DNA from: a virus
Virus record (IMG/VR): IMGVR_UViG_3300032053_000048
Coordinates: 8,898-72,897 of that record
Length of the DNA: 64,000 nucleotides
Direction: 5' to 3' (one strand)
The notes beneath the pieces were generated by a model. That model did not search any database, had not been told where the DNA came from, and saw only the letters and a program-made list of their open reading frames with translations. The number at the start of each line of letters is the position of its first letter. Position 1 is the stretch's first letter. A program made the translations under genes and the position numbers. Shown in pieces: positions 33,841-61,521 of the stretch.

Positions 33841-36081
33841 ATGAAAAAATACTTTATCATCTTGTTTTTGGTCTGTGCGTTTTCGGTTAATGCTCAGAAC
33901 ACTCATATAACATCGGGTATGTCAGCAAATACCTTCATGACTACTGTTAATACAAATCTATCGAAATATGAGGAATATTTTGGATTTCCCTTTGTAAGTA
34001 CATTGACTCTCAGGGACCCAAATTATATTTCAAAACTTAACTACAATATGGATACCCTGAGTTCTCTTTGTAGTGTTTTATACACTCCAATCACTATTGG
34101 AATGAGTGGTAGTTCTGTAAGAACAATAGTAAATAATGCTTTCGATAGTTATGTTGCTTCCAGTTTTTATCAGGCAAATGTTGCAAGATGGGATAATGAC
34201 GCAAAGAACTTTCTATCAGTTACTGGAGTTCAGACTAATGATTTCATAACCAGAGAATGTGTTAATGATCATGTCAAGATGCTTAAAGATAGTTCTCTAT
34301 GGACCAAGTTCTTAGTACTATATCCCTTAATTAAAGATAACGCAACACAACAGAAGTGGAATCTCAAAGACCCTCAGAATACCGATGCAGCTCATAGGTT
34401 AACTTATCCTTATCCTGGACTCACAACCTATTCTGATAAGGGTTTCGCAATGACTGGTGGTGCTTGGGCTGATACAAAATTCACATCTGCAGATCATCTT
34501 AACAAGAATTCAAAGACGATTTTCTCTTACATACAGCCAACGTCAGTTTATACAAGCATGGTCATAGGAAGTGGGAACTATGAAAAGGTAACTCCAACTG
34601 CCGGTAATCTTACAACTCAATTTAATCTTTCGACATTACAATGGTATGCTCCAACATATTATTTTGATATGAAAGGCTTTTGGTGTGCAACCAGAGCTGA
34701 TAAGGATACTGCAAAATTATTTCATAATACTAATCTGCTTTATAAAATCTACTATCCTGATACAGCAAGATACAATCCGTCTGACCCTATGCTTCTCGCA
34801 GCAAATGTTGTTACAACATCTTATGCTGGTATTGGTACAGGACTAACAACTCCCGAGACCAAGAAATTTTATAATGTTATCGAATATTTTGAGTCATGTA
34901 TATTAAGAAGTGTTAATCAGAATTTCCCCCCCTCAGATAGTGCAAGTTATAAGGCAATCTTAACAGTTAATCCAGCACCAGGCGAGACCTATAGTTTCAG
35001 TATGGCAGGAAAATCAACCTATGGTAAATCAGTCAGGGTTTATTTTGGCGATGGGAATATGGTTATTCTCCCGAGAGACAACCAATTGCATTATGTAATA
35101 AATACATATCAAAAATCAGCAACTTACACTATAACCGTTATGTATCCACTTGGTTTAGATCAATTGGCATGGAATGAAGGGGGGATTACAATGACCACTG
35201 ATTTCGTAAATAAGATAACTGATCTAAGGGTGCTTAACACTGCTTGGGATGGTTTAAAAGGTTCGGCTGACTTAACTAATCTTACAAAACTTGAATGGGC
35301 TTATGTGGGTTCAGCTCATACAGGTTCTATCACCAACTGGACAAGTTTAAAGACACTTATCACTTATAACAACTGTACCCTCAGTGGAGATATAACAAAT
35401 CTAACAACTATCACAAATCTGTATATTGATGGTAAGAATACAATAACAGGTAGCACCAATCTTTTAACAAAGTTACGTCAGCTTGAGGGAATGAATGGTT
35501 ATTCTACTGTATCAGGAAGTATAGTTTCTGATTCTATTCGGATAGTTTGTCTGGCTGAGTTAAATAATTTAAATTGGGATATATCTAACAAGTATAAACT
35601 TGGTTATTTATCAGTTGGAGGGACTGGAAGTGCAACCTTACATGGAAGTGTAACTAATGATACAATGCTTTTTTATATTGGAGTTGGTGGAACAGGTTCA
35701 TCTGTAACAGGGAGTCTTGCAAATTTAAAAAATCTTGCTCTGTGTTATCAATCTAATTATGATAAGCCTACGAGATTCATAAACAATCCACAACTCTGTT
35801 ATTTTGAGGGTAATCCTTCATATACATGGACCTCAGCTGAGATTAATCAGTTACTTGCCGATCTTTGGGCGAATAGAGATGTATTTAGAAGACCTGTAGA
35901 TGCATATGGTAATTATTGGCCCAATATAGGTGGAATTGGAGGAATAAGATATATTAATTTACTTGGTTCACAAAGTACTGGTGCGCCTACAGGTCAGGGT
36001 CTAATTGACTTACAGAATCTAAGGAACTATATAACTCCACCAAATTATTATAATACTACCTGGACCATACTTACAAGGTAA
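33841..36081 (+). CDS. Sec-signal-peptide protein with C-terminal LRR-like solenoid
   Basis: MKKYFIILFLVCAFSVNA/QN leader; repeated (I/L).G.(I/L)TNL..L units from ~35200. Confidence 0.6.
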   Translation: MKKYFIILFLVCAFSVNAQNTHITSGMSANTFMTTVNTNLSKYEEYFGFPFVSTLTLRDPNYISKLNYNMDTLSSLCSVLYTPITIGMSGSSVRTIVNNAFDSYVASSFYQANVARWDNDAKNFLSVTGVQTNDFITRECVNDHVKMLKDSSLWTKFLVLYPLIKDNATQQKWNLKDPQNTDAAHRLTYPYPGLTTYSDKGFAMTGGAWADTKFTSADHLNKNSKTIFSYIQPTSVYTSMVIGSGNYEKVTPTAGNLTTQFNLSTLQWYAPTYYFDMKGFWCATRADKDTAKLFHNTNLLYKIYYPDTARYNPSDPMLLAANVVTTSYAGIGTGLTTPETKKFYNVIEYFESCILRSVNQNFPPSDSASYKAILTVNPAPGETYSFSMAGKSTYGKSVRVYFGDGNMVILPRDNQLHYVINTYQKSATYTITVMYPLGLDQLAWNEGGITMTTDFVNKITDLRVLNTAWDGLKGSADLTNLTKLEWAYVGSAHTGSITNWTSLKTLITYNNCTLSGDITNLTTITNLYIDGKNTITGSTNLLTKLRQLEGMNGYSTVSGSIVSDSIRIVCLAELNNLNWDISNKYKLGYLSVGGTGSATLHGSVTNDTMLFYIGVGGTGSSVTGSLANLKNLALCYQSNYDKPTRFINNPQLCYFEGNPSYTWTSAEINQLLADLWANRDVFRRPVDAYGNYWPNIGGIGGIRYINLLGSQSTGAPTGQGLIDLQNLRNYITPPNYYNTTWTILTR

Positions 36082-38178: not shown

Positions 38179-40041
38179 ATGGCTGCTCCTGTTTACGGTC
38201 ACGACCTCACAGATTGGATTGCTGACAGTGATACTACTGCCTGGGGTGAACTTGTTAATGCCATTTCAGGTGGTGCGCCTGACGAAGCAGATACAGAAAG
38301 TGCTTTACAGGCAACCAACAGTTGTTCACAATCTTGTAATACTACAGGACTATGTTCTATGTGCAGGATACTTGGCAGTCCTGTTACCTTATCTTCTGGT
38401 CAGGTATTTCTTGTATGGCATGGTCATGGTGTTGCTACAGCTATGCTTAGTTATGCTTCTGGAGGTTTAAGGCTTGCAGTTGCCGGAAGTACTCTTACAG
38501 ATTGGAAGGCATGGGCAGTAGGGGGTAATGATGTACCACCTTTCCCCTACTCTAAATGGGTAAATAACCCTATTGACCCAACATTAACTGCGGAATATAC
38601 AAATGGTACTCCACCAACAGGAGGGACGAATATTTATGGAGTTGGAAGTATGTGCCAGTTAAGTGCAGCAGTTGCGAAAGGTCAACCGCATATTGTAGAT
38701 ATAATCAGATATGGCAGGGCAGAGGCAAGGTTCAATGCAGGAGACTCAGGTACTCCCGCTACATTTACAGGTTTTGCTACATCTAATGATGCTCAAACAG
38801 CACGTTGGGGATTGATACAGGCGGTTGCTGGGGGATTCCAATGGAAAGGACTGATGACCCTTGGGTATAGTGCTACAGCGGTTTATATGACTGATAGCAA
38901 CAAGACAATATTTATTCAGGACTGCAGAAAGGTATCCAGTACATTCAATAAGATAGAGGTCAGGGTTGCAACGAGTGTCATTAACTGGACAAACATGACA
39001 TTTAATAATGTTGCCCCTTCAACAAATGCTTCCAAGGGTGATTTCGCAATGATTGATGCTGCCGATGTAAACATAGAATCATGCTCCTTCATTGACATGG
39101 GAACATTCGTATTCCTATCATCAGCAGCTATCAATAAGTCATTATTCCTAAGATGTGGTCAGGTTACTCATGGAGGAGCCGATTTTGATTCCTGTATATT
39201 CAGTGGTTATGAGGGAACTGCCGATACAGGTTATCTGGTCTATAATGTTAATGCCGACCCGGACGGAGAAATAGATAAGTGTTCGTTTGCAAAGGGTACG
39301 GCATCAACCCATGCTATCCAATTTGGAACCAATACTCCCAACACAATAACATTAAGAGGAATAGTGTTCTCTGGATATAATGCCTCAAATGGCAATACAG
39401 ATTCGACACTCTATTTCCCGGATAAGGGCAGTGATACAACATGGACTGTCAACCTGGTTGAGTGTTCCGGGAATATAAGCTATAAAAAAGCAAGGAGTGG
39501 AGATACAGTTAATCTTGTTATAAATCCTGTTACTATTGGTATAACTGTAAAAGACCTTATTACTGGAAATGCAATAACATCTCAGGATGTAAGGGTGTTT
39601 GTTTCTGTTGCAAGCGGAGTCAATTACCCATATAATGCCTCTGTAACAATTACTAACTCAGGAACAACCGCTACAGTAGCTCATACAGGGCATGGTCTTG
39701 TTACTAATGACAAGGTTTGGATTAAGGGAGCCAGTCATTATCAGAATAATGGTGTATTTACGATTACAAAGATTACTGACAACTCATACTCATATACAAT
39801 GAGTTCTGCTCCGGGAAGCGACCCAACAGGTACCATAACTTCTACATTTGTCCCATTGGAGGGGTTAACAAATTCAAGTGGATATATAAGTGCATCAAAA
39901 TCATATTCATCTGATCAGCCTGTTACTGGATGGGCGAGGAAATCATCAGGTACTCCATTGTATAAAACGGGTGCTATTTCAGGTGATATTGATAATGTTG
40001 CAGGAGTTCAGTTGACGGTTTTACTTGCTAAAGACGAATAA
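38179..40041 (+). CDS. Structural protein with beta-helix-like middle and C-terminal FCCH-like domain
   Basis: 620 aa; TATVAHTGHGLVTNDKVWIKGA...NGVFTIT segment. Confidence 0.6.
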   Translation: MAAPVYGHDLTDWIADSDTTAWGELVNAISGGAPDEADTESALQATNSCSQSCNTTGLCSMCRILGSPVTLSSGQVFLVWHGHGVATAMLSYASGGLRLAVAGSTLTDWKAWAVGGNDVPPFPYSKWVNNPIDPTLTAEYTNGTPPTGGTNIYGVGSMCQLSAAVAKGQPHIVDIIRYGRAEARFNAGDSGTPATFTGFATSNDAQTARWGLIQAVAGGFQWKGLMTLGYSATAVYMTDSNKTIFIQDCRKVSSTFNKIEVRVATSVINWTNMTFNNVAPSTNASKGDFAMIDAADVNIESCSFIDMGTFVFLSSAAINKSLFLRCGQVTHGGADFDSCIFSGYEGTADTGYLVYNVNADPDGEIDKCSFAKGTASTHAIQFGTNTPNTITLRGIVFSGYNASNGNTDSTLYFPDKGSDTTWTVNLVECSGNISYKKARSGDTVNLVINPVTIGITVKDLITGNAITSQDVRVFVSVASGVNYPYNASVTITNSGTTATVAHTGHGLVTNDKVWIKGASHYQNNGVFTITKITDNSYSYTMSSAPGSDPTGTITSTFVPLEGLTNSSGYISASKSYSSDQPVTGWARKSSGTPLYKTGAISGDIDNVAGVQLTVLLAKDE

Positions 40042-40042
40042 A

Positions 40043-40216
40043 ATGATACCAGACGGAATGTATAGAGTGGTCTGTTCGCATTGCGGAACTCCATTCATAG
40101 TGGACAAACATGAGGCTTTTTTTAGCCCCGAAAAATGCCCTGGCTGTAACTTTGAGATTATTATGCTGGAAGTACCAGATGACGGTTCAAGAGTGGTTGC
40201 AATAGTAGAGGCATGA
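40043..40216 (+). CDS. Small zinc-ribbon protein
   Basis: CSHC...CPGC; ATG 40043 follows the upstream stop. Confidence 0.5.
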   Translation: MIPDGMYRVVCSHCGTPFIVDKHEAFFSPEKCPGCNFEIIMLEVPDDGSRVVAIVEA

Positions 40217-40503
40217 AGAACAGGGAGCAGCTTGAGCAAGAAATAGTCTTGTTGAACTTACAGGTGAATAATGCCATTGCTGAGATAAGGAGGCTTATTA
40301 ATGATAATAATGTTCTGAGGAATCTTTATAATACTGAGGCTGGTCGGACAAAACAATTAAAGGACCAGGAGGTGATTAAGAATGATATTATCCAGAAACA
40401 GATGGATAGGTCCAATGCTGAAAATAATAGATTGCTTGAACAGATAGAATTTCTGACAAAAAAACTAAGGGGATATGGCTATAACGATAAATTGGGCGAC
40501 TAA
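40213..40503 (+). CDS. Hypothetical coiled-coil protein
   Basis: 96-aa heptad-rich ORF. Confidence 0.55.
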   Translation: MKNREQLEQEIVLLNLQVNNAIAEIRRLINDNNVLRNLYNTEAGRTKQLKDQEVIKNDIIQKQMDRSNAENNRLLEQIEFLTKKLRGYGYNDKLGD

Positions 40504-41005
40504 GGTAATATCGATACCAAAGAATTACCTCACTCTTATCTCCGGTACATTATATGAGCTGGACACAGAGCAGTTCCGTAGTGATCTTAAAGACTTGGAG
40601 GATGGAGCCGAGGGTATGGTATATCCTGATACCCACCGACATAATACAGAGGTTACAGTTGCCGGTGTTACTTATGCCAGGGTTATAGAGATTATAAACG
40701 GATATTCTATCACTTTTGAAGATGATCATTACACTGTGCGACTTGCAGGGTCGAATAATAACATTTTCGATGTTGAAAATGGGATACTTAATCAGAATAG
40801 TGTCAGTGTTATCGCCGGAAACTCTGCAGGGTTAATTGTTAAGACTGTTGGTTCAGGAGTGACCGAGCAGGATAAGCTTGATATTGCAGACAGGGTACTT
40901 GATGAGATTGCTGCAGACCATGAGGGTGTTGGGAGTGTAGGCAAGATACTTAAAGATACGAAGGCAGGGGTTGATGATGCACAGGGATTGATTCTCGCAA
41001 TATAA
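40475..41005 (+). CDS. Hypothetical structural protein (last gene of the late operon)
   Basis: 176 aa; ends just before the terminator. Confidence 0.6.
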   Translation: MAITINWATKVISIPKNYLTLISGTLYELDTEQFRSDLKDLEDGAEGMVYPDTHRHNTEVTVAGVTYARVIEIINGYSITFEDDHYTVRLAGSNNNIFDVENGILNQNSVSVIAGNSAGLIVKTVGSGVTEQDKLDIADRVLDEIAADHEGVGSVGKILKDTKAGVDDAQGLILAI

Positions 41006-41084
41006 CGGAAAACCCGGACCTGAATCCGGGTTTTCTTTCACTACACATCTGACGGACGAATAGCGGGAGCTTGTCGCTCCAGAG
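41004..41084 (-). ncRNA. Candidate trans-acting small RNA (~80 nt) antisense to start regions of early genes
   Basis: Own TATCTTTG box (41089-41096), 5' hairpin GGAGC-GACAA-GCUCC, unpaired seed UUCGUCCGUCAGAUGUGUAGU, terminator; seed complementary to ~9 start-codon regions. Ends are approximate. Confidence 0.6.
41008..41035. terminator. Bidirectional intrinsic terminator at the convergence of the two arms
   Basis: GAAAACCCGGA-cctgaa-TCCGGGTTTTC 11-bp stem with T runs on both strands. Confidence 0.85.
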
Positions 41085-41088
41085 GTTA

Positions 41089-41096
41089 CAAAGATA
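41089..41096 (-). promoter_or_regulatory. Bacteroidota -7 promoter box TATCTTTG driving the candidate sRNA
   Basis: Perfect TAnnTTTG preceded by an AT-rich tract; no ORF between it and the terminator. Confidence 0.6.
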
Positions 41097-41113
41097 GTAA
41101 AAATATGATTAGA

Positions 41114-41536
41114 TCATAGGTAATTTTTTACTTTCTTCCAATATTCCCACGTCTTAGGACCTGAACCATTCCAGTCCCTTGCGATCTTACCCGGGTCTCT
41201 GTAGCCTATCTCAATGGCATAGTGTAAGAATACTCTCTCTGCTTTTTGATAGTTTAGCATATCACCCAAGGTGTACTTGATTCCGGTTCGCTCGTAATAA
41301 TCATCTAATCGAACCTGCCGTATTTGAAAATACCCATAAGCTTGTTCGATCTTGTTTACTGCGAGTGTATCCATCGCTCCGGTAACAGGATTCCCTACCT
41401 CAACCATGCCGATAGCATATTTCAGGGATATGTAGGGATTGATACCTTGAGAGGTCTCCAGATAAAGAGATCTCCATTCAGGAGCGAAAACCGTCATAGA
41501 TACCAGTAGTAAAATAACTGTTAAGATTACTTTCAT
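41114..41536 (-). CDS. Signal-peptide-bearing lysozyme / lytic transglycosylase-like protein
   Basis: AIGMVE (candidate catalytic Glu), AYGYFQI, ARDWNG and YWKKVK motifs; hydrophobic leader. Confidence 0.7.
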   Translation of the reverse strand: MKVILTVILLLVSMTVFAPEWRSLYLETSQGINPYISLKYAIGMVEVGNPVTGAMDTLAVNKIEQAYGYFQIRQVRLDDYYERTGIKYTLGDMLNYQKAERVFLHYAIEIGYRDPGKIARDWNGSGPKTWEYWKKVKNYL

Positions 41537-41561
41537 CTTGGTTCTGTATTGGTTACGGGTG

Positions 41562-41569
41562 CAAATATA
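41562..41569 (-). promoter_or_regulatory. -7 promoter box TATATTTG upstream of the lysozyme-like gene
   Basis: Matches TAnnTTTG, 25 nt upstream of ATG 41536. Confidence 0.55.
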
Positions 41570-41570
41570 A

Positions 41571-42092
41571 TCATTTTCCCTCTTTTCCTTCTCCGAGCAT
41601 TAACTTTGAGTTCATCAGAGTAATGTCGATCATATTATCAACACTGTCAATAAGCCGGTCCAGAGAGGTATTACTTCCGATCTGGATTTTCAGGAGCAGC
41701 GTTTCTTTCTGAGCAAATAGAGCATCTTTCTTTTTCTGGATTTCGGCCTTTTTTGTTTCGTATTCCTCCTTTGCTTTTAAATAGGCATCAGGATAGATAA
41801 AGAGTTCATTAGCCTGTAATGACACTGAATGATACGTTTCATTATCAGAAGAATATCGGGAATACTTCTCATGCACAAGTGATTCTCCATTTCCTAATCT
41901 TAGAACCCGCTGCCTAACAGCATTTCCTATTTCTTCAATGGACCTCATCTTAACTGAGCCATCAAGTACGGCTGCAACGAGATAATTATTCAGGGAAGGT
42001 TCTTTGGGCTTTCCCTCATCGAGCTTCCTTTCCTCGTCCCTGTAGGTCTGCTCGACTCTTGCGATTAAGAATTTTCTCTGGTCTTGGTTCAT
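41571..42092 (-). CDS. Hypothetical protein
   Basis: 173-aa ORF, coupled to the upstream gene. Confidence 0.6.
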   Translation of the reverse strand: MNQDQRKFLIARVEQTYRDEERKLDEGKPKEPSLNNYLVAAVLDGSVKMRSIEEIGNAVRQRVLRLGNGESLVHEKYSRYSSDNETYHSVSLQANELFIYPDAYLKAKEEYETKKAEIQKKKDALFAQKETLLLKIQIGSNTSLDRLIDSVDNMIDITLMNSKLMLGEGKEGK

Positions 42093-42517
42093 ATCTTCTT
42101 GGATTGAATTTCAACAATGATCTTGATGTTATCCGGGACACATCTTGCAGCTTCGTTAATCAGACTCCAGAAGGTATTTTGTATAGCAGCTTCATTGGCG
42201 ATCTCCCTTTGAGTTTCTTTTTTAGGTGGGTCGTATTCTCTCTTTGGGTCTATCGGTATTTGTTCTTCAACTGACTCCGGTGGAGGACCAGCATCAATGT
42301 AATCTGCATCCGACTGATGCTTCTTGTTAAAATCCTGAATAGCTCCAAGAGTTGAAGCTCGGAGGCCTTTCAGGTCCTGAATTGGTACCGTAAGGGCTTT
42401 CACAACAGAAGGCTCTGATAAACCTATCTCTCCGGCGATCTGTTTACGTGTCATTTGCTTGCTATCTAAGAAAGTCTTGCAAATGCGTCTGAATTTGATA
42501 ATGTCATCTCTATCCAT
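42089..42517 (-). CDS. HTH (XRE-like) transcription regulator
   Basis: MTRKQIAGEIGLSEPSVVKAL HTH pattern. Confidence 0.6.
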   Translation of the reverse strand: MDRDDIIKFRRICKTFLDSKQMTRKQIAGEIGLSEPSVVKALTVPIQDLKGLRASTLGAIQDFNKKHQSDADYIDAGPPPESVEEQIPIDPKREYDPPKKETQREIANEAAIQNTFWSLINEAARCVPDNIKIIVEIQSKKI

Positions 42518-42518
42518 A

Positions 42519-43241
42519 TTATTTAGTGTTAAGTATGTGACCTATGATTCCTTCAGTGATTACCGCTCTCTGGAAGGTATATTTCCATACCCAGGGATTT
42601 GATGGCCATGAGTCAAAACCATGAATTGTTATCCATTTGTTTTGAAACATCGCCACGCAGTTATATTCGGGAGAATCACTGACTCCCTCGCACCAGGCAT
42701 CCTCATTGGTGATATCCTGTAGATGCTGTATTTCTACCTTGGTGATCTGAATAAGGTGTCTGGCAGCTCTCTCGGGCATGAATAACTTATTCTGCCATTT
42801 GTATTGAGTATAACCCCTTTCATAATGGAACTGCCTGAACAGGTCAGTATCCTTGTCGATACCGTACTTGTAGCAGAATCTCTTTGATGGACCGCTGCAG
42901 TGTTCTGGTTCCCACACGAAGAATGGTTCTTTTAGATACAGAAAATCTCCCGGCTGGTACCTTGATCTAACATAAGAGTTATCGAAATAGAACTGATCTC
43001 CCTCGAATAGTCCGTAAGTCCCTTTAAAGGTTACCAACTTCGGCTCTCCATCCTTGTCGCAGATCATTTCTCCATTCTTATCAAGTTTAAAGCAGTCTGT
43101 AGGGTCAGTCTCCATGCCCTCAAATGTAGGTTGCGACCAAAAGGTATAATCCGTATTCGGGAAGATTATCCTCCTCGTCTGTGTCTTGGACCCATTCACA
43201 ACCTTGTGGAACAGGTCCTCTTTAAAACATATTCCTTTCAT
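42519..43241 (-). CDS. ASCH-domain protein
   Basis: GSKTQTRR, LYLKEP, LFMP, EDAWCEG and NPWVW motifs. Confidence 0.75.
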   Translation of the reverse strand: MKGICFKEDLFHKVVNGSKTQTRRIIFPNTDYTFWSQPTFEGMETDPTDCFKLDKNGEMICDKDGEPKLVTFKGTYGLFEGDQFYFDNSYVRSRYQPGDFLYLKEPFFVWEPEHCSGPSKRFCYKYGIDKDTDLFRQFHYERGYTQYKWQNKLFMPERAARHLIQITKVEIQHLQDITNEDAWCEGVSDSPEYNCVAMFQNKWITIHGFDSWPSNPWVWKYTFQRAVITEGIIGHILNTK

Positions 43242-43486
43242 TCTTCTATCTCTTTAAATTCAACTTTAATAAACGGCTGTGGTCCATCCGGTAGTGGTCG
43301 GCGAGAAGGAATCCATCGGGAACCATAACGATAGCGATATTTCCCAAAGTGGCCTCCTTTATGTATTGCCATTTCCTTTTTGTGATTCTCAAAGAGTTTC
43401 TTGGCAAAGGAAAGGGCTTTTTTCTCTGTCATTGGGAGCTCAATAGTCCCCTGGTGCGTTTCAGCTTTTAACAGTATTTTCTTCAT
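43238..43486 (-). CDS. Hypothetical protein
   Basis: ATG 43486 (or 43495), preceded by GACGGAC. Confidence 0.5.
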   Translation of the reverse strand: MKKILLKAETHQGTIELPMTEKKALSFAKKLFENHKKEMAIHKGGHFGKYRYRYGSRWIPSRRPLPDGPQPFIKVEFKEIEE

Positions 43487-43682
43487 GTCCGTCATTTTTA
43501 GTTAATATTTCAAGTAGTGTTGCCTGGCAGAGCTTGTGTTCCTTTATGAATTGCTTGGCCATCACCCCGAACATATCTATTGATATCGGGAGTGGTAACT
43601 TCATGGACCGCTTACACCTGTTACACAAGAATCCTCCAGTTACGGGGTCCATCACAAGGTAGTCATACTTTCTTTTTGTCAT
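43461..43682 (-). CDS. Small Cys/His (Zn-binding) protein
   Basis: CNRC...HKLC. Confidence 0.5.
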   Translation of the reverse strand: MTKRKYDYLVMDPVTGGFLCNRCKRSMKLPLPISIDMFGVMAKQFIKEHKLCQATLLEILTKNDGHEENTVKS

Positions 43683-44532
43683 AAGGGAATTCTTTAAACC
43701 GGTGAAAAGGCGTATTTCCCATAAGGTTGATCTTGTTCCAGCTGGAGATCACTTTCTTATTCCAGTACGTTCCCCAGGACTTGAAGAAGAACGGTACATT
43801 ATGTTTCTGGCAGTCATTAAAGACTTTCAGAGCCCAATCTGGTTGCATTGGCCTTGCCTTAGGACCAGTTTCTCCACCGAGAATGACCCAATCAATCCCC
43901 AGGAACCTCTTATCATCATGCGGAGCTGTGAATATACCGGTCAAGCCATTGATGATAAAATCGCTGCTCTCCTGAGGCAGATATGTAAGGTCTATTTCGT
44001 CCAGCATTGGTTCGATGCTGATATACCTACAGACTGCAGGAGTGTTAAGCAGTATCGGTATCTTAAAGTTTGCCTCCTCCTGGTTGCAGATTGTAACTCC
44101 GATCCAGACGTTAGGCAGGACTTTACCGTACCGCTCCATGAAGATATTCATTTCTACTGGTCTCTTGGTCAGCATTTGGAATGTGTGTTGAGGACATTTC
44201 TCCATGACTTTAAATAACTCAAAGAGGTCCTGATTACCTTGGCCTGTCCGAGCATGGAAGAAAACATCGGTCATTGAACCTACAAATATCTTCCGGGATT
44301 TCTTCCATTCATAAGGCTGAAGCATCACTTCATAGTCACAATGAGTGTTCCAACTCCATGTTCCATCGAGGTCAGTTACCTCCCGGTAACGTTCTCCAAC
44401 CGTATTATTAATCGACCTGAGTCTGTTTGCCATTTTCTCAGCATAGCAGTTCTGGCATCCCGGGCTGATCTTATGACAGCCTATAATCGGGTTCCAGCTG
44501 AAATCCGTCCATTGAATAGAGCTTATTCCCAT
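43663..44532 (-). CDS. DUF5131 / phage Gp37Gp68 family (radical-SAM-like) protein
   Basis: IQWTDFSWNPIIGC...SPGCQNCYA, FVGSMTDVF, LTKRP, SIEPML, WVILGGETG and PFFFK motifs. Confidence 0.88.
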   Translation of the reverse strand: MGISSIQWTDFSWNPIIGCHKISPGCQNCYAEKMANRLRSINNTVGERYREVTDLDGTWSWNTHCDYEVMLQPYEWKKSRKIFVGSMTDVFFHARTGQGNQDLFELFKVMEKCPQHTFQMLTKRPVEMNIFMERYGKVLPNVWIGVTICNQEEANFKIPILLNTPAVCRYISIEPMLDEIDLTYLPQESSDFIINGLTGIFTAPHDDKRFLGIDWVILGGETGPKARPMQPDWALKVFNDCQKHNVPFFFKSWGTYWNKKVISSWNKINLMGNTPFHRFKEFPYDKKKV

Positions 44533-44735
44533 AGTTTTTTGATTCTATTAATTACTTTCTGCATTACGGTGCCGACAATAAAAGATGCAACTAAAAATGT
44601 TATGATTACTGCAGCTGGCAGAATCGAGTTAAACAATTCGATGTAGATTACAAACATTACCCCTGCAGCTGCAAGGATGATCGCTACCATCAATCCGATG
44701 ATAAGCAAGACAGTGATTATGATTTTATTTCTCAT
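44523..44735 (-). CDS. Small membrane protein (2 TM)
   Basis: Two hydrophobic helices. Confidence 0.55.
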   Translation of the reverse strand: MRNKIIITVLLIIGLMVAIILAAAGVMFVIYIELFNSILPAAVIITFLVASFIVGTVMQKVINRIKKLWE

Positions 44736-44768
44736 TCTGTTTTGGTTTTATTAGACCATCACGATAGG

Positions 44769-45269
44769 CTAAAAATCTATTGAATGCCATTTGAATAATC
44801 TTTCTAAAACAGTTTGTATCCTTGCGTATGCCTCCTTTTTACCTTGATAAAATTCTTTATGCTCTCCTTGTGAATTACCCACTACCATACGTCTTTTATA
44901 ATCTAAAGCATCATCCTTTACTTCTTTATAAATATCCATTAAATTACTTATAAAACTTTTTCCAATAGCAGTCTCTTCGTCACTCAAAGGAGTGTTTATC
45001 TCTTTGGCGGGTTGGTCATCATCCATGCCATCATTAATTATGATTTCATCTGATTTATCAATAATACCATGTTCGGCAATCTTTTTGAATATATCAGCAT
45101 TTGTAGGAGTATAGGGTATTGAATATTTTTTATCGTCACTCTCTTGCCCTGCGAGTTCGGATGCAATAGAATAAATGTCATTTTCATCCCATATCACATA
45201 AATATCTCCATCAGCATGAATATATTTTCGCAATATCTCAATTATTCTCTCTTTGGTTAGTGTTTTCAT
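44769..45269 (-). CDS. Hypothetical protein, MKTLT-module family
   Basis: Shares MKTLT, ELAGQESD and PAK modules with neighbours. Confidence 0.6.
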   Translation of the reverse strand: MKTLTKERIIEILRKYIHADGDIYVIWDENDIYSIASELAGQESDDKKYSIPYTPTNADIFKKIAEHGIIDKSDEIIINDGMDDDQPAKEINTPLSDEETAIGKSFISNLMDIYKEVKDDALDYKRRMVVGNSQGEHKEFYQGKKEAYARIQTVLERLFKWHSIDF

Positions 45270-45312
45270 CTCTCTCTTTATTTAGTTATTTGCTTTAGCG
45301 GGTTCATTAGTA

Positions 45313-45591
45313 TTATTTCGTTAGTTTGTTTCTCATCCATTTATTACATATCCCAAAACGTATATCAACTTCATTATAAAGACATGGTGGTTCATATATT
45401 CTGCGTTTAGGGTATTTTTTTCTGTACAATTTTTTCATTAAAATACATTGCCATCCAGGAATATAAGCACCTTCTCTACTAATTAATCCATGAATACAGT
45501 TACCACATCTTTTTTTAGGCGTAATGGGTTCGTTATAATTTAATTCAGGGAAGATGTCTTTTGGATATACCCAATAATCATCTGTTTTCAT
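45313..45591 (-). CDS. Small Cys-rich hypothetical protein
   Basis: CGNC...C...C...C. Confidence 0.5.
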   Translation of the reverse strand: MKTDDYWVYPKDIFPELNYNEPITPKKRCGNCIHGLISREGAYIPGWQCILMKKLYRKKYPKRRIYEPPCLYNEVDIRFGICNKWMRNKLTK

Positions 45592-45592
45592 G

Positions 45593-46504
45593 TTATTTAC
45601 TTTTAAATATTAAACCATCTCTATATGCCTTTGCACCAACATAACAACCGTACTGAATAAATCTTAACGTTGATGGTTCGTGATAAGTTTCTTCATCATA
45701 TTGATTTGCCCACTCTTCAATCTCTTCATCTGTTATCTCTGGTTTCCTGACTAAACTCAGATACCATTTAGCAATAGTCTCTTTATCGTGTGTCATTAAT
45801 GAATCTAAGTCTTCAAATACTGGTTGCTGAGATGCGTAATGTTCCATATACTCATGCAATAAGTACCCTGAGATATGATAAATGCCATCTTTGTCTGGTT
45901 TTTGTAATCTGCTTTTAAAAAATTCCTCTGGTGTCATTCCTTTAGTCTCTTTAGTAGGTTGCTGAGATGCGTAAATCTTCATTGCTCTTATAGCAATTTG
46001 ATAAGTAATCCTTTCAAACCCTCCTTGAACTTCATTAAGTACCTCTTCTGCCGTCTTTGCTTCAGCTTTCCAAAATGGTTTATTCCTGCCATAGTTATCA
46101 TCACCGGGGCCATAAATATCATTGTGATGATCTGGCTTTTTCTTTGCTTCATCCTTGACGGGTTCGCTCTCTGTATAACTTAATATACTTCTCGGTTCTC
46201 CACCGCAAATACGACAAAAGCCATTTCTATCAATACCTTCCCATACCTGACAATCACATTTACCTGTCTTTGTTTCAGCTTTGGCGGGTTTATTACTTGG
46301 ATGATATTCACATAAAGTACATTCCTTTGGTATTTTGTCACTCTCTTGCCCTGCGAGTTCGGCAAGAATATCAGCAATAATATCATCTACATCAATAAAT
46401 TTAATTATAGCAGTACCATTCTCTCCGTTAGGTGCAGCATATCTCCATAAGTTCTCAATCATTATGGACTTCAATTCCTGCTTATCAATGGTTAGTGTTT
46501 TCAT
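45593..46504 (-). CDS. Modular hypothetical protein, MKTLT-module family
   Basis: MKTLT, ELAGQESD, two YASQQP modules and Cys clusters. Confidence 0.6.
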   Translation of the reverse strand: MKTLTIDKQELKSIMIENLWRYAAPNGENGTAIIKFIDVDDIIADILAELAGQESDKIPKECTLCEYHPSNKPAKAETKTGKCDCQVWEGIDRNGFCRICGGEPRSILSYTESEPVKDEAKKKPDHHNDIYGPGDDNYGRNKPFWKAEAKTAEEVLNEVQGGFERITYQIAIRAMKIYASQQPTKETKGMTPEEFFKSRLQKPDKDGIYHISGYLLHEYMEHYASQQPVFEDLDSLMTHDKETIAKWYLSLVRKPEITDEEIEEWANQYDEETYHEPSTLRFIQYGCYVGAKAYRDGLIFKSK

Positions 46505-46514
46505 CTCTCTTTAT

Positions 46515-46709
46515 TTAGTTAATTGCTTTAACGGGTAATGGCGGATTATAATACACCGTATATTCAGATGAGTTTGCAATGCGTCCCTGGTACTCCCTCT
46601 TGAATGACGTATTCTTAATTTCATAATCCGTCAGCATATACGCCCGGACAAATGCCATTGCTGCTTTTTTCGTTTTTAGTGAACGTGAATATTTGTATTT
46701 ATCTTCCAT
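46515..46709 (-). CDS. Hypothetical protein
   Basis: 64-aa ORF in the operon. Confidence 0.5.
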   Translation of the reverse strand: MEDKYKYSRSLKTKKAAMAFVRAYMLTDYEIKNTSFKREYQGRIANSSEYTVYYNPPLPVKAIN

Positions 46710-46730
46710 CTTACCGGTTTTTAAGGATAA

Positions 46731-47030
46731 TCATCTAAATCTGTTTTCTGGATCAGAATACAAATCCTCCCAATCCCTATCAGATGTTAAGGGTTTTTGA
46801 TTCCTTAATTTAGTTCTGTCTCTTACCCACGAATCAATATCCCCAAGCGACACTAATTGATTTAGTTCCATTGCCGTTAATGATTCTATCTTATTCTTGA
46901 TATTCGAATCATAAAGCCTTATGTCCTCATCACGGAGTCTTTCACAGACTTTTTCGATAAGCTCTTTTCCTGTCATTTCCATATCATTTCTCTTTAATGT
47001 TAATTTCCCAATAAGTATGTAGTTCGTCAA
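46731..47030 (-). CDS. Hypothetical protein (start uncertain)
   Basis: ORF in the operon; an internal ATG is the more likely start. Confidence 0.45.
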   Translation of the reverse strand: MTNYILIGKLTLKRNDMEMTGKELIEKVCERLRDEDIRLYDSNIKNKIESLTAMELNQLVSLGDIDSWVRDRTKLRNQKPLTSDRDWEDLYSDPENRFR

Positions 47031-47451
47031 GAGTTTTTAAATTTGTTGGGATTCTATCCTCATTAGGTGATTGAAATTTTATCGAATGATCAACAGTATT
47101 TAAAACAGCTTCATAATTTGAATCCCAGCATAGCCACTCCACAAACTCCTTGCTATACATTGGATGTTCGAGGGGAAGAAGTTCCTTTAATTCTGCGAGT
47201 TCTTTATGTAGTCTATCTCCTGTAAGTAATAGTGCCATATATTTCCCCTCTGATTCAACCGTTGTAGGATCAGGAGTTACTAACTGGATTGTTAAATTTT
47301 CAATTAGTTCATCCTGTTTCTCAATTATCTTCTCTTTGGTTAGTGTTTTCATAGCTGAATTGGGTTTAAGTATCTCAGGAGAACGCATCTTCAAATCATC
47401 TATCGATGGTTTGTAGTTTCTCAATCTTTCGAGTTCATTTGGATTGTCCAT
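46984..47451 (-). CDS. Hypothetical protein, MKTLT-module family (internal MKTLTKE at 47352)
   Basis: Shared module with 44769..45269. Confidence 0.55.
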   Translation of the reverse strand: MDNPNELERLRNYKPSIDDLKMRSPEILKPNSAMKTLTKEKIIEKQDELIENLTIQLVTPDPTTVESEGKYMALLLTGDRLHKELAELKELLPLEHPMYSKEFVEWLCWDSNYEAVLNTVDHSIKFQSPNEDRIPTNLKTLDELHTYWEINIKEK

Positions 47452-47851
47452 TTTTATCGGGATTAATTGTTTTTGCTGCTTCTTTCATAAATTCATCAGA
47501 ATAAAAGTCGTCCATTCTATGTTCAAACTCCTGTTTCGTCAGCTCCTCTGCCTTCTCGAATCCAATAGAGACTTTAGTTACATTGGACTCAGGGTCATTG
47601 GGGTCAATTATTATTGCAGCTGGCTTAACATTGAACTGATAGTAAACAGTCATGTATAGATCAGGGAACTTACCAAGTACCATCTTACCCCTGCAGTCCC
47701 TTACTACAAGATGAGTGCGATACCTCCCGGAAAGAACTTTCTTGTCGAGAATGACATTTCTAAGATAGTCCTGCAGGAAGGGACCACACTTATATATCTC
47801 AACGACCTTTAAGAACTCCTCAGGACTCAATAACTTTGACATCTGCTTCAA
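47435..47851 (-). CDS. Hypothetical protein
   Basis: 138-aa ORF in the operon. Confidence 0.55.
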   Translation of the reverse strand: MKQMSKLLSPEEFLKVVEIYKCGPFLQDYLRNVILDKKVLSGRYRTHLVVRDCRGKMVLGKFPDLYMTVYYQFNVKPAAIIIDPNDPESNVTKVSIGFEKAEELTKQEFEHRMDDFYSDEFMKEAAKTINPDKNGQSK

Positions 47852-48236
47852 GTTTGGTTATTAATTCAGGAAAATTGACCTTGTTTATCTTCATCTCATA
47901 TAATACAAGCTCAGCCATAGTCAGAAACTGCCGATCTTTCATCCGCTCCTTGGCCTTCGCCACGTCATATTGCATTGATGAACGACTGTTCCCGGTCAGT
48001 GCTATGAGTTGGTGCCAGCTGTACCTCTTGATTTCCCTCATTATATAGAAATAGAGTTGCCTTGGTTTAGTGTATTTCCGCATACTACAGCCAGGGATAC
48101 CCCGGGCGAGAATCATCCCTTCCTCAACTTCAAATATCCTCGCTATTATCTCCAGAATGGGTTTTTTACCTCCATTCTCTCTCCTTATCTGGAAGGGCAA
48201 TCCGGGAACTGCATATAAATTCGGTCTGTGTTTCAT
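47820..48236 (-). CDS. DnaA C-terminal-like HTH protein
   Basis: IIARIFEV...PRQLYFYIMRE...SW..LI..TG pattern. Confidence 0.55.
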   Translation of the reverse strand: MKHRPNLYAVPGLPFQIRRENGGKKPILEIIARIFEVEEGMILARGIPGCSMRKYTKPRQLYFYIMREIKRYSWHQLIALTGNSRSSMQYDVAKAKERMKDRQFLTMAELVLYEMKINKVNFPELITKLEADVKVIES

Positions 48237-48862
48237 GGTCTGAGGGATTCACCGCTAAACTCAATGATCTTGCATAACCGATTTATCCGGTCCATAGTAC
48301 GATCTCCATACCTTTCGAGAAACTGAGCATCCGAGAGGTTTGAGGATATTATCAGGATATCGAGGTCCTGTTCAGCTTTATTGATGATCTCATTAAAGGG
48401 CTCGAATCGTTCACCGTAGTTATTTACCCGGGATTCGGTTCCGAGCTCGTCAATGTAAGAGAACTTCCAGTCACGATACTTATGGAAGTTCCAGGTTCCA
48501 TCAAGATTAAGGTTTGGAAGCTGTGAGGCATGGAAGCCTGGGAGATACTTATTAAGAGCTTTGAACATTGGTTTCAGGACTCCAAGGATGATGTTGCTCT
48601 TGCCTCTACCGCAATCACCATACATAAACAGGCCCTTTCCCTGGTTGTCGGCCATCCATTCAGTCACCTTATAATATTCCGGTAGCCATTTGAATTCCTT
48701 CAATGTTTTATCATACCTTTTGAAACACTCGGTAAATACGTCATTGAGTATCGGCAGCTTACCAAGTGAGACAACTGTATATCTTCTTTCGTAAGGCCTA
48801 CCTTCAGATAGTTGGGCGAAAGCCTTATCTATCATTTCTTTGTGTTTGGGGTCAAGTTCCAT
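48233..48862 (-). CDS. DnaC/IstB-like AAA+ helicase loader
   Basis: GDCGRGKS Walker A, IDELGTE Walker B, SSNL, YGDRTMDR and GESLR motifs. Confidence 0.85.
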   Translation of the reverse strand: MELDPKHKEMIDKAFAQLSEGRPYERRYTVVSLGKLPILNDVFTECFKRYDKTLKEFKWLPEYYKVTEWMADNQGKGLFMYGDCGRGKSNIILGVLKPMFKALNKYLPGFHASQLPNLNLDGTWNFHKYRDWKFSYIDELGTESRVNNYGERFEPFNEIINKAEQDLDILIISSNLSDAQFLERYGDRTMDRINRLCKIIEFSGESLRP

Positions 48863-48865
48863 ATA

Positions 48866-51034: not shown

Positions 51035-51197
51035 AATTTAGTTTTTGATGTTTGGAAACATATTCTTTAATTTTCTGATCGGCCCATATCTTCATAGCCT
51101 TTCTGACATTGGCCTTGGATATTTTGAAAGCGCCCCTTGTTCCTGGCTTGAAATGGCATGGATATCGTAGTCTATCAATAATCTGATCTCTTGTCAT
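51027..51197 (-). CDS. Small hypothetical protein, 56 aa (MTRDQIIDRLRYPC...)
   Basis: Fills the gap between the MBL and antirepressor genes with close start/stop coupling. Confidence 0.5.
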   Translation of the reverse strand: MTRDQIIDRLRYPCHFKPGTRGAFKISKANVRKAMKIWADQKIKEYVSKHQKLNYE

Positions 51198-51198
51198 T

Positions 51199-52928: not shown

Positions 52929-52938
52929 AATTGAAAAT

Positions 52939-54903: not shown

Positions 54904-54907
54904 ATAG

Positions 54908-56038: not shown

Positions 56039-56358
56039 ACTCCCTCCTTTCCTTCTTCAAGGTCCTGTAGTTCCTGTTTGAGATCGTACTCATAGTTATC
56101 AAGGTGGTGCCTCATCCTTGAGATATACCTGAGTGTTTCGCTGTGCAGCTGTTCAAGTAATTCATCGGGAAGACTACACCCCGAAACTATCAATCTGTCG
56201 CCTCCGGTGCTCATGTTAGGACGTGCCGTTAATAGTCTCGATCTTTTGCTACTACTGAATTCGATCTCATTCGTTTCGATCAGTACTGCCTTAGCATACT
56301 GAGCATGATCAATCTTCTTTAAGATTTCTGCTCCTTTAATGATTGTTTCCTGTTTCAT
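56035..56358 (-). CDS. Hypothetical protein
   Basis: ATG 56358 preceded by GACGGACAA. Confidence 0.55.
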   Translation of the reverse strand: MKQETIIKGAEILKKIDHAQYAKAVLIETNEIEFSSSKRSRLLTARPNMSTGGDRLIVSGCSLPDELLEQLHSETLRYISRMRHHLDNYEYDLKQELQDLEEGKEGV

Positions 56359-56369
56359 TTGTCCGTCTT

Positions 56370-58027: not shown

Positions 58028-58509
58028 ATTTTCCTTTCTTTGATTGCGTCTGTATCTGAGGCGTACATTGCTGTATTGTAGTACAGCAGATCGCCACCGC
58101 ATACTGAGGTTATGCCGACCATCAGGGGATTAAGGCCCAGACAGGCAAAGAATAGCTTGTCGTCATTTGTAAGCCTGCTATGTGCCCGGCCTGTTTCCTG
58201 CCAGCTCTTAACCATGCGGTTGATGCGTACCATCTCGGTCTCTTTGTCTGGTTCTTGGGAGTAACAGGGGAATATCTGTTCGCCATAGGCCCAATGACCA
58301 TTTGACAGGTTAACCACGCAGAACTCTTTTTGAGACCACAGGGCAGACTCTGTTTCCTCACCATACTTAGACCTCTTTTGGGTGCTGATCTCAATTCCTG
58401 AGATCACAGCACGCACCGGAGGGGCCTGATTGAAGTTTCCTCTCCAGAGGACAGTATCGCCTATGGCGAAACTGTCCTTTACTCTTACCTCGTTAATGAT
58501 CTGTGCCAT
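58024..58509 (-). CDS. Hypothetical early protein
   Basis: Start preceded by ATCTGAC. Confidence 0.6.
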   Translation of the reverse strand: MAQIINEVRVKDSFAIGDTVLWRGNFNQAPPVRAVISGIEISTQKRSKYGEETESALWSQKEFCVVNLSNGHWAYGEQIFPCYSQEPDKETEMVRINRMVKSWQETGRAHSRLTNDDKLFFACLGLNPLMVGITSVCGGDLLYYNTAMYASDTDAIKERKI

Positions 58510-58510
58510 G

Positions 58511-58876
58511 TCAGATTGAGTTAAGTGTTCGTATTATATTGCGCTGGTGGACCAGCAGGCCGATCATCATGCCCTGCCAGATGATATTGTCCTCACCCTT
58601 GAGCTGGTGACGCATAACCTCGATCTTCTCCCTCAGTGCATCGGCGATTGTACATTTCTGTTCGTAGCTAAGGGCTGAGGTCTTGATCTTGATGAGTGTC
58701 CAGTCCCACACCCCGAAGTTCTTGGCATATCTTACCTCGATGTCTTCGGGTTGGTTGCGGGAGAGCATGAGCATCTCATCATGTTCTTCTCTGCTCCAGT
58801 TGGGAGCGTCACAGGTGGATATACGGGCTGAGCCATTCTTCCTTGCCTGTTCGATTGTCTTTTGTACTGTATTCAT
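58511..58876 (-). CDS. Hypothetical early protein
   Basis: Start preceded by ACATCTGACAA. Confidence 0.6.
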   Translation of the reverse strand: MNTVQKTIEQARKNGSARISTCDAPNWSREEHDEMLMLSRNQPEDIEVRYAKNFGVWDWTLIKIKTSALSYEQKCTIADALREKIEVMRHQLKGEDNIIWQGMMIGLLVHQRNIIRTLNSI

Positions 58877-58907
58877 TTGTCAGATGTTTGGTTACTGCCT
58901 TATGGCA

Positions 58908-59448: not shown

Positions 59449-59833
59449 TTATTAATGTCTCATCAACATCAGGGTTATCCACAATCTTGAAATAGGCCTC
59501 CTCTTTCTCGCTCTCAGTCATTGGGAATTCCCGGCCCCATTTTGAACGGCCGTCTTCATGTCTGTGGTGTTTCATCATGTACTCGAGCATGACTGTCTGG
59601 TTGTGGTGTGTCATATCCTGCAACCATTTTACGAGGACCTCAGGGGAGTTACATTCGATCATGTGTTTCCGGGCGTTACGTTTGCGCAGGCCGTCCAGCT
59701 TATCGCTAAAATGCTGTGAGAGGTTTGCGCCATGTGGTTGTTCTTCCTTATATCTACCTTGTTCAAAGTAGAAAAGAAAGTGCTGGTATGCGTCAAACAT
59801 ACGCAGCTGGTCAGATGTTGGTTTGTTGTTCAT
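59426..59833 (-). CDS. Hypothetical early protein
   Basis: Start preceded by ACATCTGACA; a second copy lies a few codons into the gene. Confidence 0.6.
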   Translation of the reverse strand: MNNKPTSDQLRMFDAYQHFLFYFEQGRYKEEQPHGANLSQHFSDKLDGLRKRNARKHMIECNSPEVLVKWLQDMTHHNQTVMLEYMMKHHRHEDGRSKWGREFPMTESEKEEAYFKIVDNPDVDETLINGNHGNQ

Positions 59834-59993
59834 TGTCAGATGTTTTAGTTCGTAATTTGATCATATCTTCAACTGTCTGTTTGAGGCAGTTGATCTGCAC
59901 CCATAACTGAGTTATGCGGTGGTGGGTGAAATCAGAGCCCTCGATCATTTTCGAGGTCTCTGATAACATTTTGGTTAAGTCGTCCTTCTTCAT
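59811..59993 (-). CDS. Small hypothetical protein
   Basis: ATG 59993 (MKKDDL...) just after the radC stop. Confidence 0.45.
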   Translation of the reverse strand: MKKDDLTKMLSETSKMIEGSDFTHHRITQLWVQINCLKQTVEDMIKLRTKTSDNEQQTNI

Positions 59994-60636: not shown

Positions 60637-60857
60637 GACATTGAGTAATAAAGTTCATACTCCACCATGATCTCAGACTCCTGCTCCAGCGGACACGTCC
60701 ACGATGCAGTCCTGAATCCCGGATGAAACAACTGGAACAACTGATCATAGCGCTTGTTCCTCGGGTCGTTGTCATCAACCAATACAAAGGATGAACCTTC
60801 AAACAGTTCGTCCTTCAGTGCTTTGTACTCCTCGTACAGTCTCTTTAAATTTGTCAT
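60633..60857 (-). CDS. Hypothetical early protein
   Basis: Start preceded by ACACATCTGACAA. Confidence 0.6.
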   Translation of the reverse strand: MTNLKRLYEEYKALKDELFEGSSFVLVDDNDPRNKRYDQLFQLFHPGFRTASWTCPLEQESEIMVEYELYYSMS

Positions 60858-61102
60858 TTGTCAGATGTGTTTAGTTTAATGTGCTTGTCTATGATATTAC
60901 AGAACTCAATGTACCAAGTCCAACTGAATATCGGATTGTAATAGGCTTCAGAGTTCTCAAGTACTCCCTTTCTCGTTAGTTCAGCGATCTTGTTTAATCT
61001 CTCAATGAAGATCATCTGATAAAACGGGTGTGCTGCAAGTATCTCCTTGATCAGGTTCTTGATCACCACGTCATTTGTCAGTTCTTTTACTTTCTTTGTC
61101 AT
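60854..61102 (-). CDS. Hypothetical early protein
   Basis: Start preceded by ACTAACACATCTGACAA. Confidence 0.6.
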   Translation of the reverse strand: MTKKVKELTNDVVIKNLIKEILAAHPFYQMIFIERLNKIAELTRKGVLENSEAYYNPIFSWTWYIEFCNIIDKHIKLNTSDK

Positions 61103-61122
61103 TTGTCAGATGTGTTAGTTAA

Positions 61123-61521
61123 TTACTTCGATACTACATTGATCAAAACAACCGTCCGGCCATTCTTTAACTCAATGGTCTCCCGGTCCGTCTCAATCCA
61201 ATCATGCTGGTCTAAATACTCTTTTACCTGCCATGCAGTTGTAAAGGTCCGACCATTGACCTTGTACATTGTTCCAAAATACTTTTTGCTCATGTCGTCA
61301 GATGTTTGGTGAATACTATCAATTAACTGTGATCTTGTTTTAGATGCCTCAGCAAATGTTCTCGCCTGTATGAAAACCCCTACCCCATCAGGCATTAGAA
61401 AGTAATAAAGACACTGCCCCGGCTTCAATCCCTGACCATACAACGCAGTAATCAGAAACCGCTCAGGCTTGAGTAATCTCTGAAGCTTTCCGTATCTGTC
61501 TGATTTTGTGGCTTTTACCAT
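61123..61521 (-). CDS. Hypothetical early protein; probable second in-frame start at 61293 (MSKKYFG...)
   Basis: First ORF after the early promoter; internal ATG 61293 is preceded by ACATCTGACGAC. Confidence 0.5.
   Translation of the reverse strand: MVKATKSDRYGKLQRLLKPERFLITALYGQGLKPGQCLYYFLMPDGVGVFIQARTFAEASKTRSQLIDSIHQTSDDMSKKYFGTMYKVNGRTFTTAWQVKEYLDQHDWIETDRETIELKNGRTVVLINVVSK

Follow-up and report, generated by a model that had tools for sequence, protein, structure and literature searches.

Is a small promoter-to-terminator unit, placed where the two gene arms of a phage genome converge, the gene of a regulatory RNA, and does it act on messages of the same phage? This question is raised by the minus-strand locus 41004-41096 in a 64,000-base stretch of the IMG/VR virus record IMGVR_UViG_3300032053_000048, a phage DNA found in sediment metagenomes. 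The record is a circular genome of about 72.8 kb (72,897 bases, with a 127-base overlap of its ends); the 64,000 bases analysed are referred to here as the window, and their first letter is position 1. A first-pass annotation had proposed that the locus encodes a trans-acting small RNA which pairs with the start regions of a set of early genes. The analysis reported here leads, with moderate confidence, to the view that the unit specifies a trans-acting antisense RNA controlling, and probably repressing, the translation of immediate-early genes. The link between the unit and the words that stand before the early start codons is well supported by sequence comparison, with conservation and statistics behind it and covariation not.

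A conserved unit where the two arms converge

The plus-strand arm carries the structural genes, and its last open reading frame (ORF) ends with a stop at 41005. The minus-strand arm begins at about 61.6 kb and has its last stop at 41114. The 108 nucleotides (nt) between these two stops are free of ORFs and contain a box, a hairpin and a terminator, all read on the minus strand and all at the positions that the first-pass annotation had given (Table 1). The Bacteroides −7 promoter consensus used for the box is that presented in part of PMC12632263. The terminator hairpin (41035-41008) consists of 12 base pairs (bp), with a run of A before it and a run of T after it, and should therefore be able to terminate both arms. 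One element of the earlier description had to be corrected. The stretch 41039-41060 had been regarded as unpaired, whereas the predicted fold places 41065-41039 in a second hairpin, in which only the loop 41054-41050 is left open. As a whole, the unit folds at −37.6 kcal/mol, compared with −19.3 kcal/mol for shuffled sequences (z = −6.3), and none of the 200 shuffles reached the same stability.

Relatives of the unit were sought through its neighbour, a gene for a protein of 140 amino acids (aa). An alignment of relatives of this protein, scanned against DNA collections, led to 80 metagenome loci and 13 viral loci (93 in total). In three of the 33 loci inspected by eye, namely L211, L212 and L291 (the latter in genome G002), a similar unit lies right after the stop codon of the 140-aa gene. 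A covariance model was then built from four units, these three and that of the phage described here. Applied to the 93 loci, it recovered the same three at 82-91 bits, with the next best at 22.7 bits. A set of 80 cellular loci, from metagenome-assembled genomes (MAGs) of Bacteroidota, gave no model hit. A scan with the capsid protein identified 17 records of the clade, and in one of them, G054, the model found a fifth, more divergent unit. The unit of G054 directly follows a 37%-identical homologue of the 140-aa gene, and it is identical in the fragment G066.

The pattern of conservation is selective. Among the unit-bearing sequences, the neighbouring 140-aa protein is 37-61% identical, and the flanks of the unit are unalignable. 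The ten bases of the box region (41087-41096) are kept in all four aligned units, with one C/T difference, and G054 keeps nine of them. Hairpin 1 is present in each of the five units with a sequence unrelated each time, and all five also have hairpin 2, a small structure with a loop of 4-5 nt around the conserved stretch. Within that stretch, the seed bases 41053-41045 are identical in four units, and the first six of them are identical in G054. In G054 these six are followed by one inserted base, which pairs with an extra base on the other arm of hairpin 2, so that the stem gains a pair. In the terminator, compensatory changes affect 4 of 11 pairs in the four-sequence alignment.

No conserved ORF was found on either strand when the units were compared by reading. 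On the RNA strand of G002, a start codon meets a stop after two codons; on the opposite strand, the ORF extends over four codons in L211, and its start codon is missing in this phage. The match to a known RNA family for which the first-pass annotation had suggested looking did not appear at gathering score. The Rfam scan of the 501-nt stretch 40800-41300 yielded only six chance-level matches, of which the best scored 20.4 bits against a cut-off of 47 and did not belong to the C4 family. Across the whole window, neither a tRNA nor any Rfam family was matched at gathering score, and a distant DNA search of 40000-44000 against the GenBank phage collection gave no match.

Several candidate relatives were rejected. 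An exact search of IMG/VR with the 15-base seed returned 41 stretches with 27-44 of 97 positions identical, including the 15 fixed ones; none was alike outside the seed, and they were dismissed as chance. The exact 15-base start word (at least 118 single matches) and a gapped promoter-plus-seed pattern (at least 113 stretches) were uninformative. A pattern of seed plus A-rich tract had three matches, G002 being the only real one. Contigs from three sediment DNA runs that align to 40950-60949 comprised the source contigs and fragments of relatives, and none of those listed at the unit was informative; the runs listed as containing the locus included no RNA set. Among 50 more distant virus records, none other than G002 had a credible unit. 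There were six weak model hits, and the one inspected, in G001, proved to be the promoter of a protein gene with the same type of box. A model hit in G060 was set aside as a terminator likeness, as it follows an 831-aa ORF in a different context and lacks the seed. G055 has neither the start word nor a homologue of the 140-aa gene.

The box conserved in all five units points to a promoter of the unit's own, and the terminator and the lack of coding potential fit an RNA gene. A conserved seed complementary to start regions encoded elsewhere, a further mark of trans-encoded base-pairing small RNAs, is likewise present. The unit is very probably a genuine conserved non-coding RNA gene, with a predicted product of about 75-85 nt.

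The start word and its genomic setting

The complement of 41053-41045 is a 9-base word of which the minus strand of the window has six copies, with first bases at 61305, 61113, 60868, 59843, 59818 and 58887. All of these copies fall within 58.9-61.3 kb. The sole plus-strand copy in the window is the locus itself, read backwards. For five of the minus-strand copies, a mere 1-3 nt separate the end of the word from a start codon (61293, 61102, 60857, 59833 and 58876), and a 7-base version adjoins the start codon 58509, which bears out the claim that a complement of the unit lies just upstream of six early AUGs. The start at 61293 is an internal in-frame start of ORF 61521-61123, and either start could be the used one. 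The remaining copy (59818-59810) lies 15 nt into the ORF beginning at 59833 and includes the stop codon of the overlapping ORF 59993-59811.

The word-bearing genes are small and are the first after the early promoter region, and none of them has a Pfam match above the curated cut-off. Genes further along the minus arm lack the word. The start word occurs in one orientation, a few nt before start codons, in the non-structural arm only, and on unrelated genes as well.

The excess of complementarity over chance was assessed by comparing the 54-nt body of the unit with the region from −20 to +5 of predicted starts; 15,000 random genome windows of equal length served as the control. In this phage, exact complements of at least 9 nt were found at 5 of 84 starts, a result equalled by 43 of the 15,000 random windows, so that the enrichment at start regions for which the first-pass annotation had proposed a test is indeed present. 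Complements of 11 nt occur at two starts, which 19 of 15,000 random windows equalled. In G002, the corresponding figure for at least 9 nt is 6 of 81 starts, equalled by only two random windows in 15,000. Duplex energies, a crude measure, gave a similar picture. Energies of −19 kcal/mol or lower were reached at 7 of 82 starts of this phage, versus 2.5% of 9,255 in-gene windows, and 200 shuffled seeds gave at most three starts. For G002, the values were 5 of 79 starts versus 0.55% of in-gene windows, with at most one start for shuffled seeds.

The word is also found in relatives. G002 (67,119 bp, rated complete) has 35 ORFs in common with this genome, in synteny, and a 75%-identical capsid protein. 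Its word stands directly before the first five early, consecutive starts (36768, 37035, 37439, 37709 and 38304), on the same strand as its unit, which lies 17 kb downstream. The complementarity of the G002 seed extends over the start codon. Among 50 more distant virus records, only G002 showed a cluster of the word before start codons. In G054, related words occur at the first three early starts, and just one of them reaches 9 nt. When the tagged ORFs were compared across genomes, with three ORFs of G059 left out, 5 homologous cross-genome pairs were found among 17 usable word-bearing ORFs. The tagged genes are therefore partly homologous and partly not, which means that the word tracks position in the early operon rather than a gene family.

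G059 (L555) is a distant member of the clade in which the word, with one base changed, is present at four starts. At about 54,322-54,400 on its minus strand, beside the early genes, lies a promoter-to-terminator unit of about 75 nt. The bases of its terminator loop complement the portion of the word that is unchanged; such an 8-mer is expected about twice per genome by chance. The unit of G059 may represent an analogous small RNA at a different place, or chance.

A second target word, thought by the first-pass annotation to tile one seed together with the first, did not hold up. This 7-base word (complement of 41057-41051) has four copies on the minus strand of the window and two on the plus strand, about 3.9 being expected per strand, and is thus at chance frequency. 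The starts 56358 and 43495/43486, which account for two of the four minus-strand copies, share the same upstream context, and in G002 the homologue of gene 56358 has no such word at its start. The seed bases that would pair with the second word are specific to this phage, with other bases there in all four homologous units. It was the replacement, in this phage, of the seed part that covers the start codon in relatives that generated the match. This fits a gain specific to one lineage, as a single case. The proposed seed match at 49480 fared no better, as its 7-mer has seven minus-strand and five plus-strand copies in the window and is not above chance. The idea of one small RNA over an early regulon is consequently retained in part: a conserved non-coding unit mirrors the first early starts in three genomes, while the second-word targets and the expected covariation fall away.

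Table 1. Features of the proposed small-RNA unit, its neighbour and the candidate target sites, in window coordinates
Feature	Position	Strand	Basis or remark
Promoter −7 box	41096-41089	−	Fits Bacteroides −7 consensus; with two next bases, 41087..41096
Hairpin 1, 5-bp stem, 5-nt loop	41080-41066	−	Predicted fold
Hairpin 2, carrying the seed; loop 41054-41050	41065-41039	−	Predicted minimum-energy fold
Anti-word (seed), exact complement of the 9-11-base start word	41043..41053	−	Sequence match
Complement of the second 7-base word, found in this phage only	41051..41057	−	Chance-level counts; unconserved in homologues
Bidirectional intrinsic terminator, common to the converging plus arm	41008-41035	−	Sequence and fold
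140-aa protein gene adjoining the unit	41114-41536	−	Large family in Bacteroidota genomes
Start word, 10 nt complementary (hand count), and start codon 61293	61291..61305	−	Sequence match
Start word, 11 nt complementary, and start codon 61102	61100..61115	−	Sequence match
Start word, 11 nt, and start codon 60857	60855..60870	−	Within end of upstream ORF
Start word, 9 nt, and start codon 59833	59831..59843	−	Sequence match
Start word, 9 nt, and start codon 58876	58874..58887	−	Sequence match
Shortened start word, 7 nt, abutting start codon 58509	58507..58516	−	Sequence match
Second word, 7 nt, before start codon 56358; weak candidate target	56356..56367	−	Without counterpart in G002
Second word, 7 nt, overlapping first start codon 43495 and abutting second, 43486; weak candidate target	43484..43495	−	Sequence match

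The minus arm carries small genes of unknown function together with RadC-like, topoisomerase-like, methyltransferase, SbcC-like, RecT-like, Ant-like and primosomal-like genes. ORFs 50126-49464 and 49606-48866 overlap by 143 nt, and by just 17 nt if translation begins at the in-frame internal start 49480, which makes this position a possible true start of the primosomal-like gene. At the other end of the arm, between the early operon and a diverging plus-strand ORF of 78 aa (62176-62412, no Pfam match), a 17-nt repeat with a palindromic core is present five times, at a spacing of 20-34 bp (61873-61999). These copies probably constitute an operator array of the early promoter.

The 140-aa protein has no Pfam match, and its conserved motifs are presumed here to resemble those of a lytic transglycosylase. 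Its relatives number 47 in a large protein collection. Of its 80 best cellular homologues, 79 come from Bacteroidota MAGs (Bacteroidales, Rikenellaceae and others) and one from Ignavibacteria, and the host phylum is therefore likely to be Bacteroidota. Ribosomes of this phylum do not use Shine–Dalgarno pairing, according to a portion of PMC7797042.

Antisense control weighed against other explanations

If the unit acts as proposed, its Bacteroidota-type promoter would be used by the RNA polymerase of the host, and the transcript would end at the shared bidirectional terminator. Even without a promoter of its own, the sequence of the unit would still form the 3' end of the minus-arm message. 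The loop of hairpin 2 would offer 4-5 conserved bases complementary to the middle of the start word. An RNA that mirrors a start region would also have hairpins mirroring those of the message, and loop-to-loop contact followed by duplex spreading is the classical route of antisense RNAs. Pairing would thus begin at the loop and spread to 9-11 bp in this phage and to 8-12 bp in relatives, where it would include the start codon. In a host that does not employ Shine–Dalgarno pairing, such a duplex would block the landing place of the 30S subunit. The immediate-early genes would most likely be repressed together at the level of translation, and their messages might then decay. This direction is favoured because 9-12 bp of duplex reaching up to or across the start codon would be expected to exclude the 30S subunit, all the more so where Shine–Dalgarno pairing is not used. 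The repression could serve either early shut-off or an immunity-like silencing.

A number of observations weigh against this reading. All units belong to one clade and hence represent one evolutionary event, and targets can be checked in three genomes only. Covariation of seed and target in related phages was looked for, and hand counts in the three genomes revealed no compensatory substitutions, the core being just conserved. By a further hand count, the six start words of this phage form about 57 paired bases with their own seed and about 66 with the seed of G002; the cognate seed is best at all three sites in G054 and not in this phage. Taken alone, G054 is not significant, with one start of at least 9 nt, equalled by 4,780 of 15,000 random windows. 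The strongest predicted duplex (−25.6 kcal/mol) involves a stretch at 820-850 (+) of the genome, outside the window, in a spurious ORF antisense to an 869-aa gene, and strong-looking duplexes can therefore arise by chance. The seed lies largely inside the stem of hairpin 2, whose minimum-energy folds leave just 4-5 bases open in the loop, and the A-rich tract with the terminator is also accounted for by the need to terminate the opposite arm. Moreover, G059 has no syntenic unit and no 140-aa gene.

Further points on the same side come from start words in other phages. The unrelated 78-kb phage G001 (L207), whose only gene in common with this phage is topoisomerase-like, has its own word of 16-17 nt at about 17 consecutive early starts (about 6000-14730, minus strand), and its 94%-complete record holds no good reverse copy of that word. 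G006, the record behind L164 and a 74-kb phage, carries a C/A-repeat word at several starts, with 12 forward copies and no reverse copy. The third case belongs to the start-associated sequences (SAS) of cluster K mycobacteriophages. As described in part of PMC3203893, these are 13-bp words located 3-7 bp before the starts of 11-19 non-structural genes, in one orientation; a single reverse copy is present in four phages, and that portion of the paper leaves open whether RNA or protein is the binder. Passages of two reports from 2024 and 2025 still term the function of SAS unknown (PMC11373665, PMC12699233).

With respect to anatomy, SAS are the closest likeness to the start word described here, which also precedes start codons in one orientation, in the non-structural arm and on unrelated genes. 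The sequences differ, as the 13-bp SAS consensus is unmatched and SAS has a Shine–Dalgarno core, and no proposal of an RNA partner for SAS was found, so that the start word is an analogue of SAS and not a member. In the cluster K phage Anaya (L430), one of the 17 SAS matches is on the other strand, at 34871-34883. The site of this reverse copy is the 385-bp non-coding gap that separates gp96 from gp97; a terminator-like hairpin lies upstream of it, and 6-bp inverted repeats on either side would place it in a loop. This stretch is present in 138 mycobacteriophage records. CrimD, Niklas and Amelie retain the reverse SAS, whereas Ekdilam has an altered form of it and Keshu a different sequence in its place. 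On these sequence features, the reverse SAS of Anaya is a candidate mirror RNA, with mixed support. Ekdilam and Keshu have 14-17 forward SAS words, and Keshu, being without a reverse copy, counts against antisense control. The cluster K parallel is, as judged from these genomes, real and not universal.

The start words of G001, G006 and Keshu have no mirror copy, and the word therefore needs no RNA partner. The notion that every phage with start words possesses a mirror RNA was rejected on the same three cases. The word itself probably contributes to initiation, and in the present clade the RNA would add a further layer of control.

Alternatively, the word could be recognised as double-stranded DNA by a DNA-binding protein of the phage, as an asymmetric site similar to the stoperators of cluster A mycobacteriophages that are treated in a section of PMC3203893. 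The copy in the gap would then act on late-arm transcription, and the apparent RNA gene would be incidental. Since DNA sites bind either way round, the single inverted copy would be accounted for, and the start-codon bases retained in the inverted copy of relatives are what a site extending across the start codon would show. However, the early copies are all on the sense strand, 0-3 nt before start codons, which points to translation. Nor does a DNA site account for the promoter box conserved at a constant distance, for the structure of hairpin 1 kept with unrelated sequence, or for the wobble pairs of hairpin 2 that are valid on the RNA strand only. In addition, the inverted copy of this phage no longer includes the start-codon part, yet a hairpin is retained. 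The five-copy palindromic operator array (61873-61999) is already situated at the early promoter, and a second DNA-level system is therefore less needed. Considering both sides, a DNA site is an improbable explanation.

It is likewise improbable that the unit encodes a real small RNA whose main targets are messages of the host or of other genes of the phage, the match to early starts being secondary. Precedent exists in that the phage small RNAs named in part of a review (PMC12197685) act on host genes. Yet the sole stretch of the RNA conserved in all five units is the one that mirrors the phage's own start word, and that word is retained at early starts in all three checkable genomes.

Quite unlikely is a third alternative, in which the unit has no separate function and consists of a 3' untranslated end and a bidirectional terminator with the relic of an inverted early-gene start. 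A terminator is required there anyway, and in three relatives the opposite strand looks like a start word with its start codon. Relics should decay, however, whereas 6-9 seed bases and the promoter box are invariant despite unalignable flanks and a neighbouring protein of 37-61% identity, and the opposite strand encodes four codons in L211 and lacks a start codon in this phage. Activation or guidance of initiation by the RNA, for instance through the melting of a local fold or by tethering tagged messages to the ribosome, is also hard to credit, as nothing specific favours it beyond the partnerless start words of other phages, which suggest that the word itself promotes initiation, and a duplex over −1 to −12 or the start codon would, from what is generally known of base-pairing small RNAs, be expected to occlude the 30S subunit.

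Known regulators and wider meaning

Antisense repression of early translation, the preferred reading, has partial counterparts among known regulators. The c4 antisense RNA of phages P1 and P7 is a small phage RNA that pairs in trans at the ribosome landing site of the phage's own messages and blocks their translation. The unit resembles it in its predicted action on messages of the same phage near the start, and there is no relationship in sequence or structure and no Rfam match at gathering score. Unlike c4, the present unit would address five to six or more genes, each provided with a tag, from a promoter of its own at the far end of the arm and in a host phylum that does not use Shine–Dalgarno pairing.

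Joint control of early messages can also be exerted by proteins. RegA of phage T4, a protein, shuts off a large number of early messages together by acting at a site that overlaps their start codon. The likeness to the unit consists in the joint early shut-off; the difference is that RegA is a protein and the unit a predicted RNA. No RegA-like protein was named among the 30 window proteins scanned against PHROGs or Pfam, in scans that were not aimed at RegA.

Bacterial small RNAs of the GcvB type combine one conserved seed with many start regions that share a motif, and they end at an intrinsic terminator. Such seed-type RNAs are chromosomal and mostly dependent on Hfq, and their targets are host regulons. 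Here, in contrast, the predicted regulator and its targets are on one phage genome, and the motif stands at a fixed distance from the start codon. In the literature consulted, no phage small RNA acting on a set of the phage's own early starts was found, nor any phage small RNA in Bacteroidota phages.

A broader interpretation may be put forward tentatively, namely that a start tag combined with a mirror small RNA is a general, as yet undescribed way in which many phage lineages time their first genes. Within this interpretation, the tag could be a private ribosome landing pad and the RNA its switch, in hosts without Shine–Dalgarno pairing. The same logic might, by analogy, account for part of the cluster K SAS, the function of which has been an open question since 2011. 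The only reverse SAS copy falls within a conserved hairpin of a non-coding gap in Anaya and in three of the five relatives compared.

Translation start signals in Bacteroidota are poorly understood, and this gives the proposed system its significance. If the reading is correct, a single RNA of about 80 nt would set the translation of an immediate-early gene set in a Bacteroidota phage, as the RNA analogue of early shut-off by proteins. The tag and its switch would then form a compact, portable pair for gene control in Bacteroidota. In addition, the 15-year-old question of SAS function would become a concrete test for a mirror RNA.

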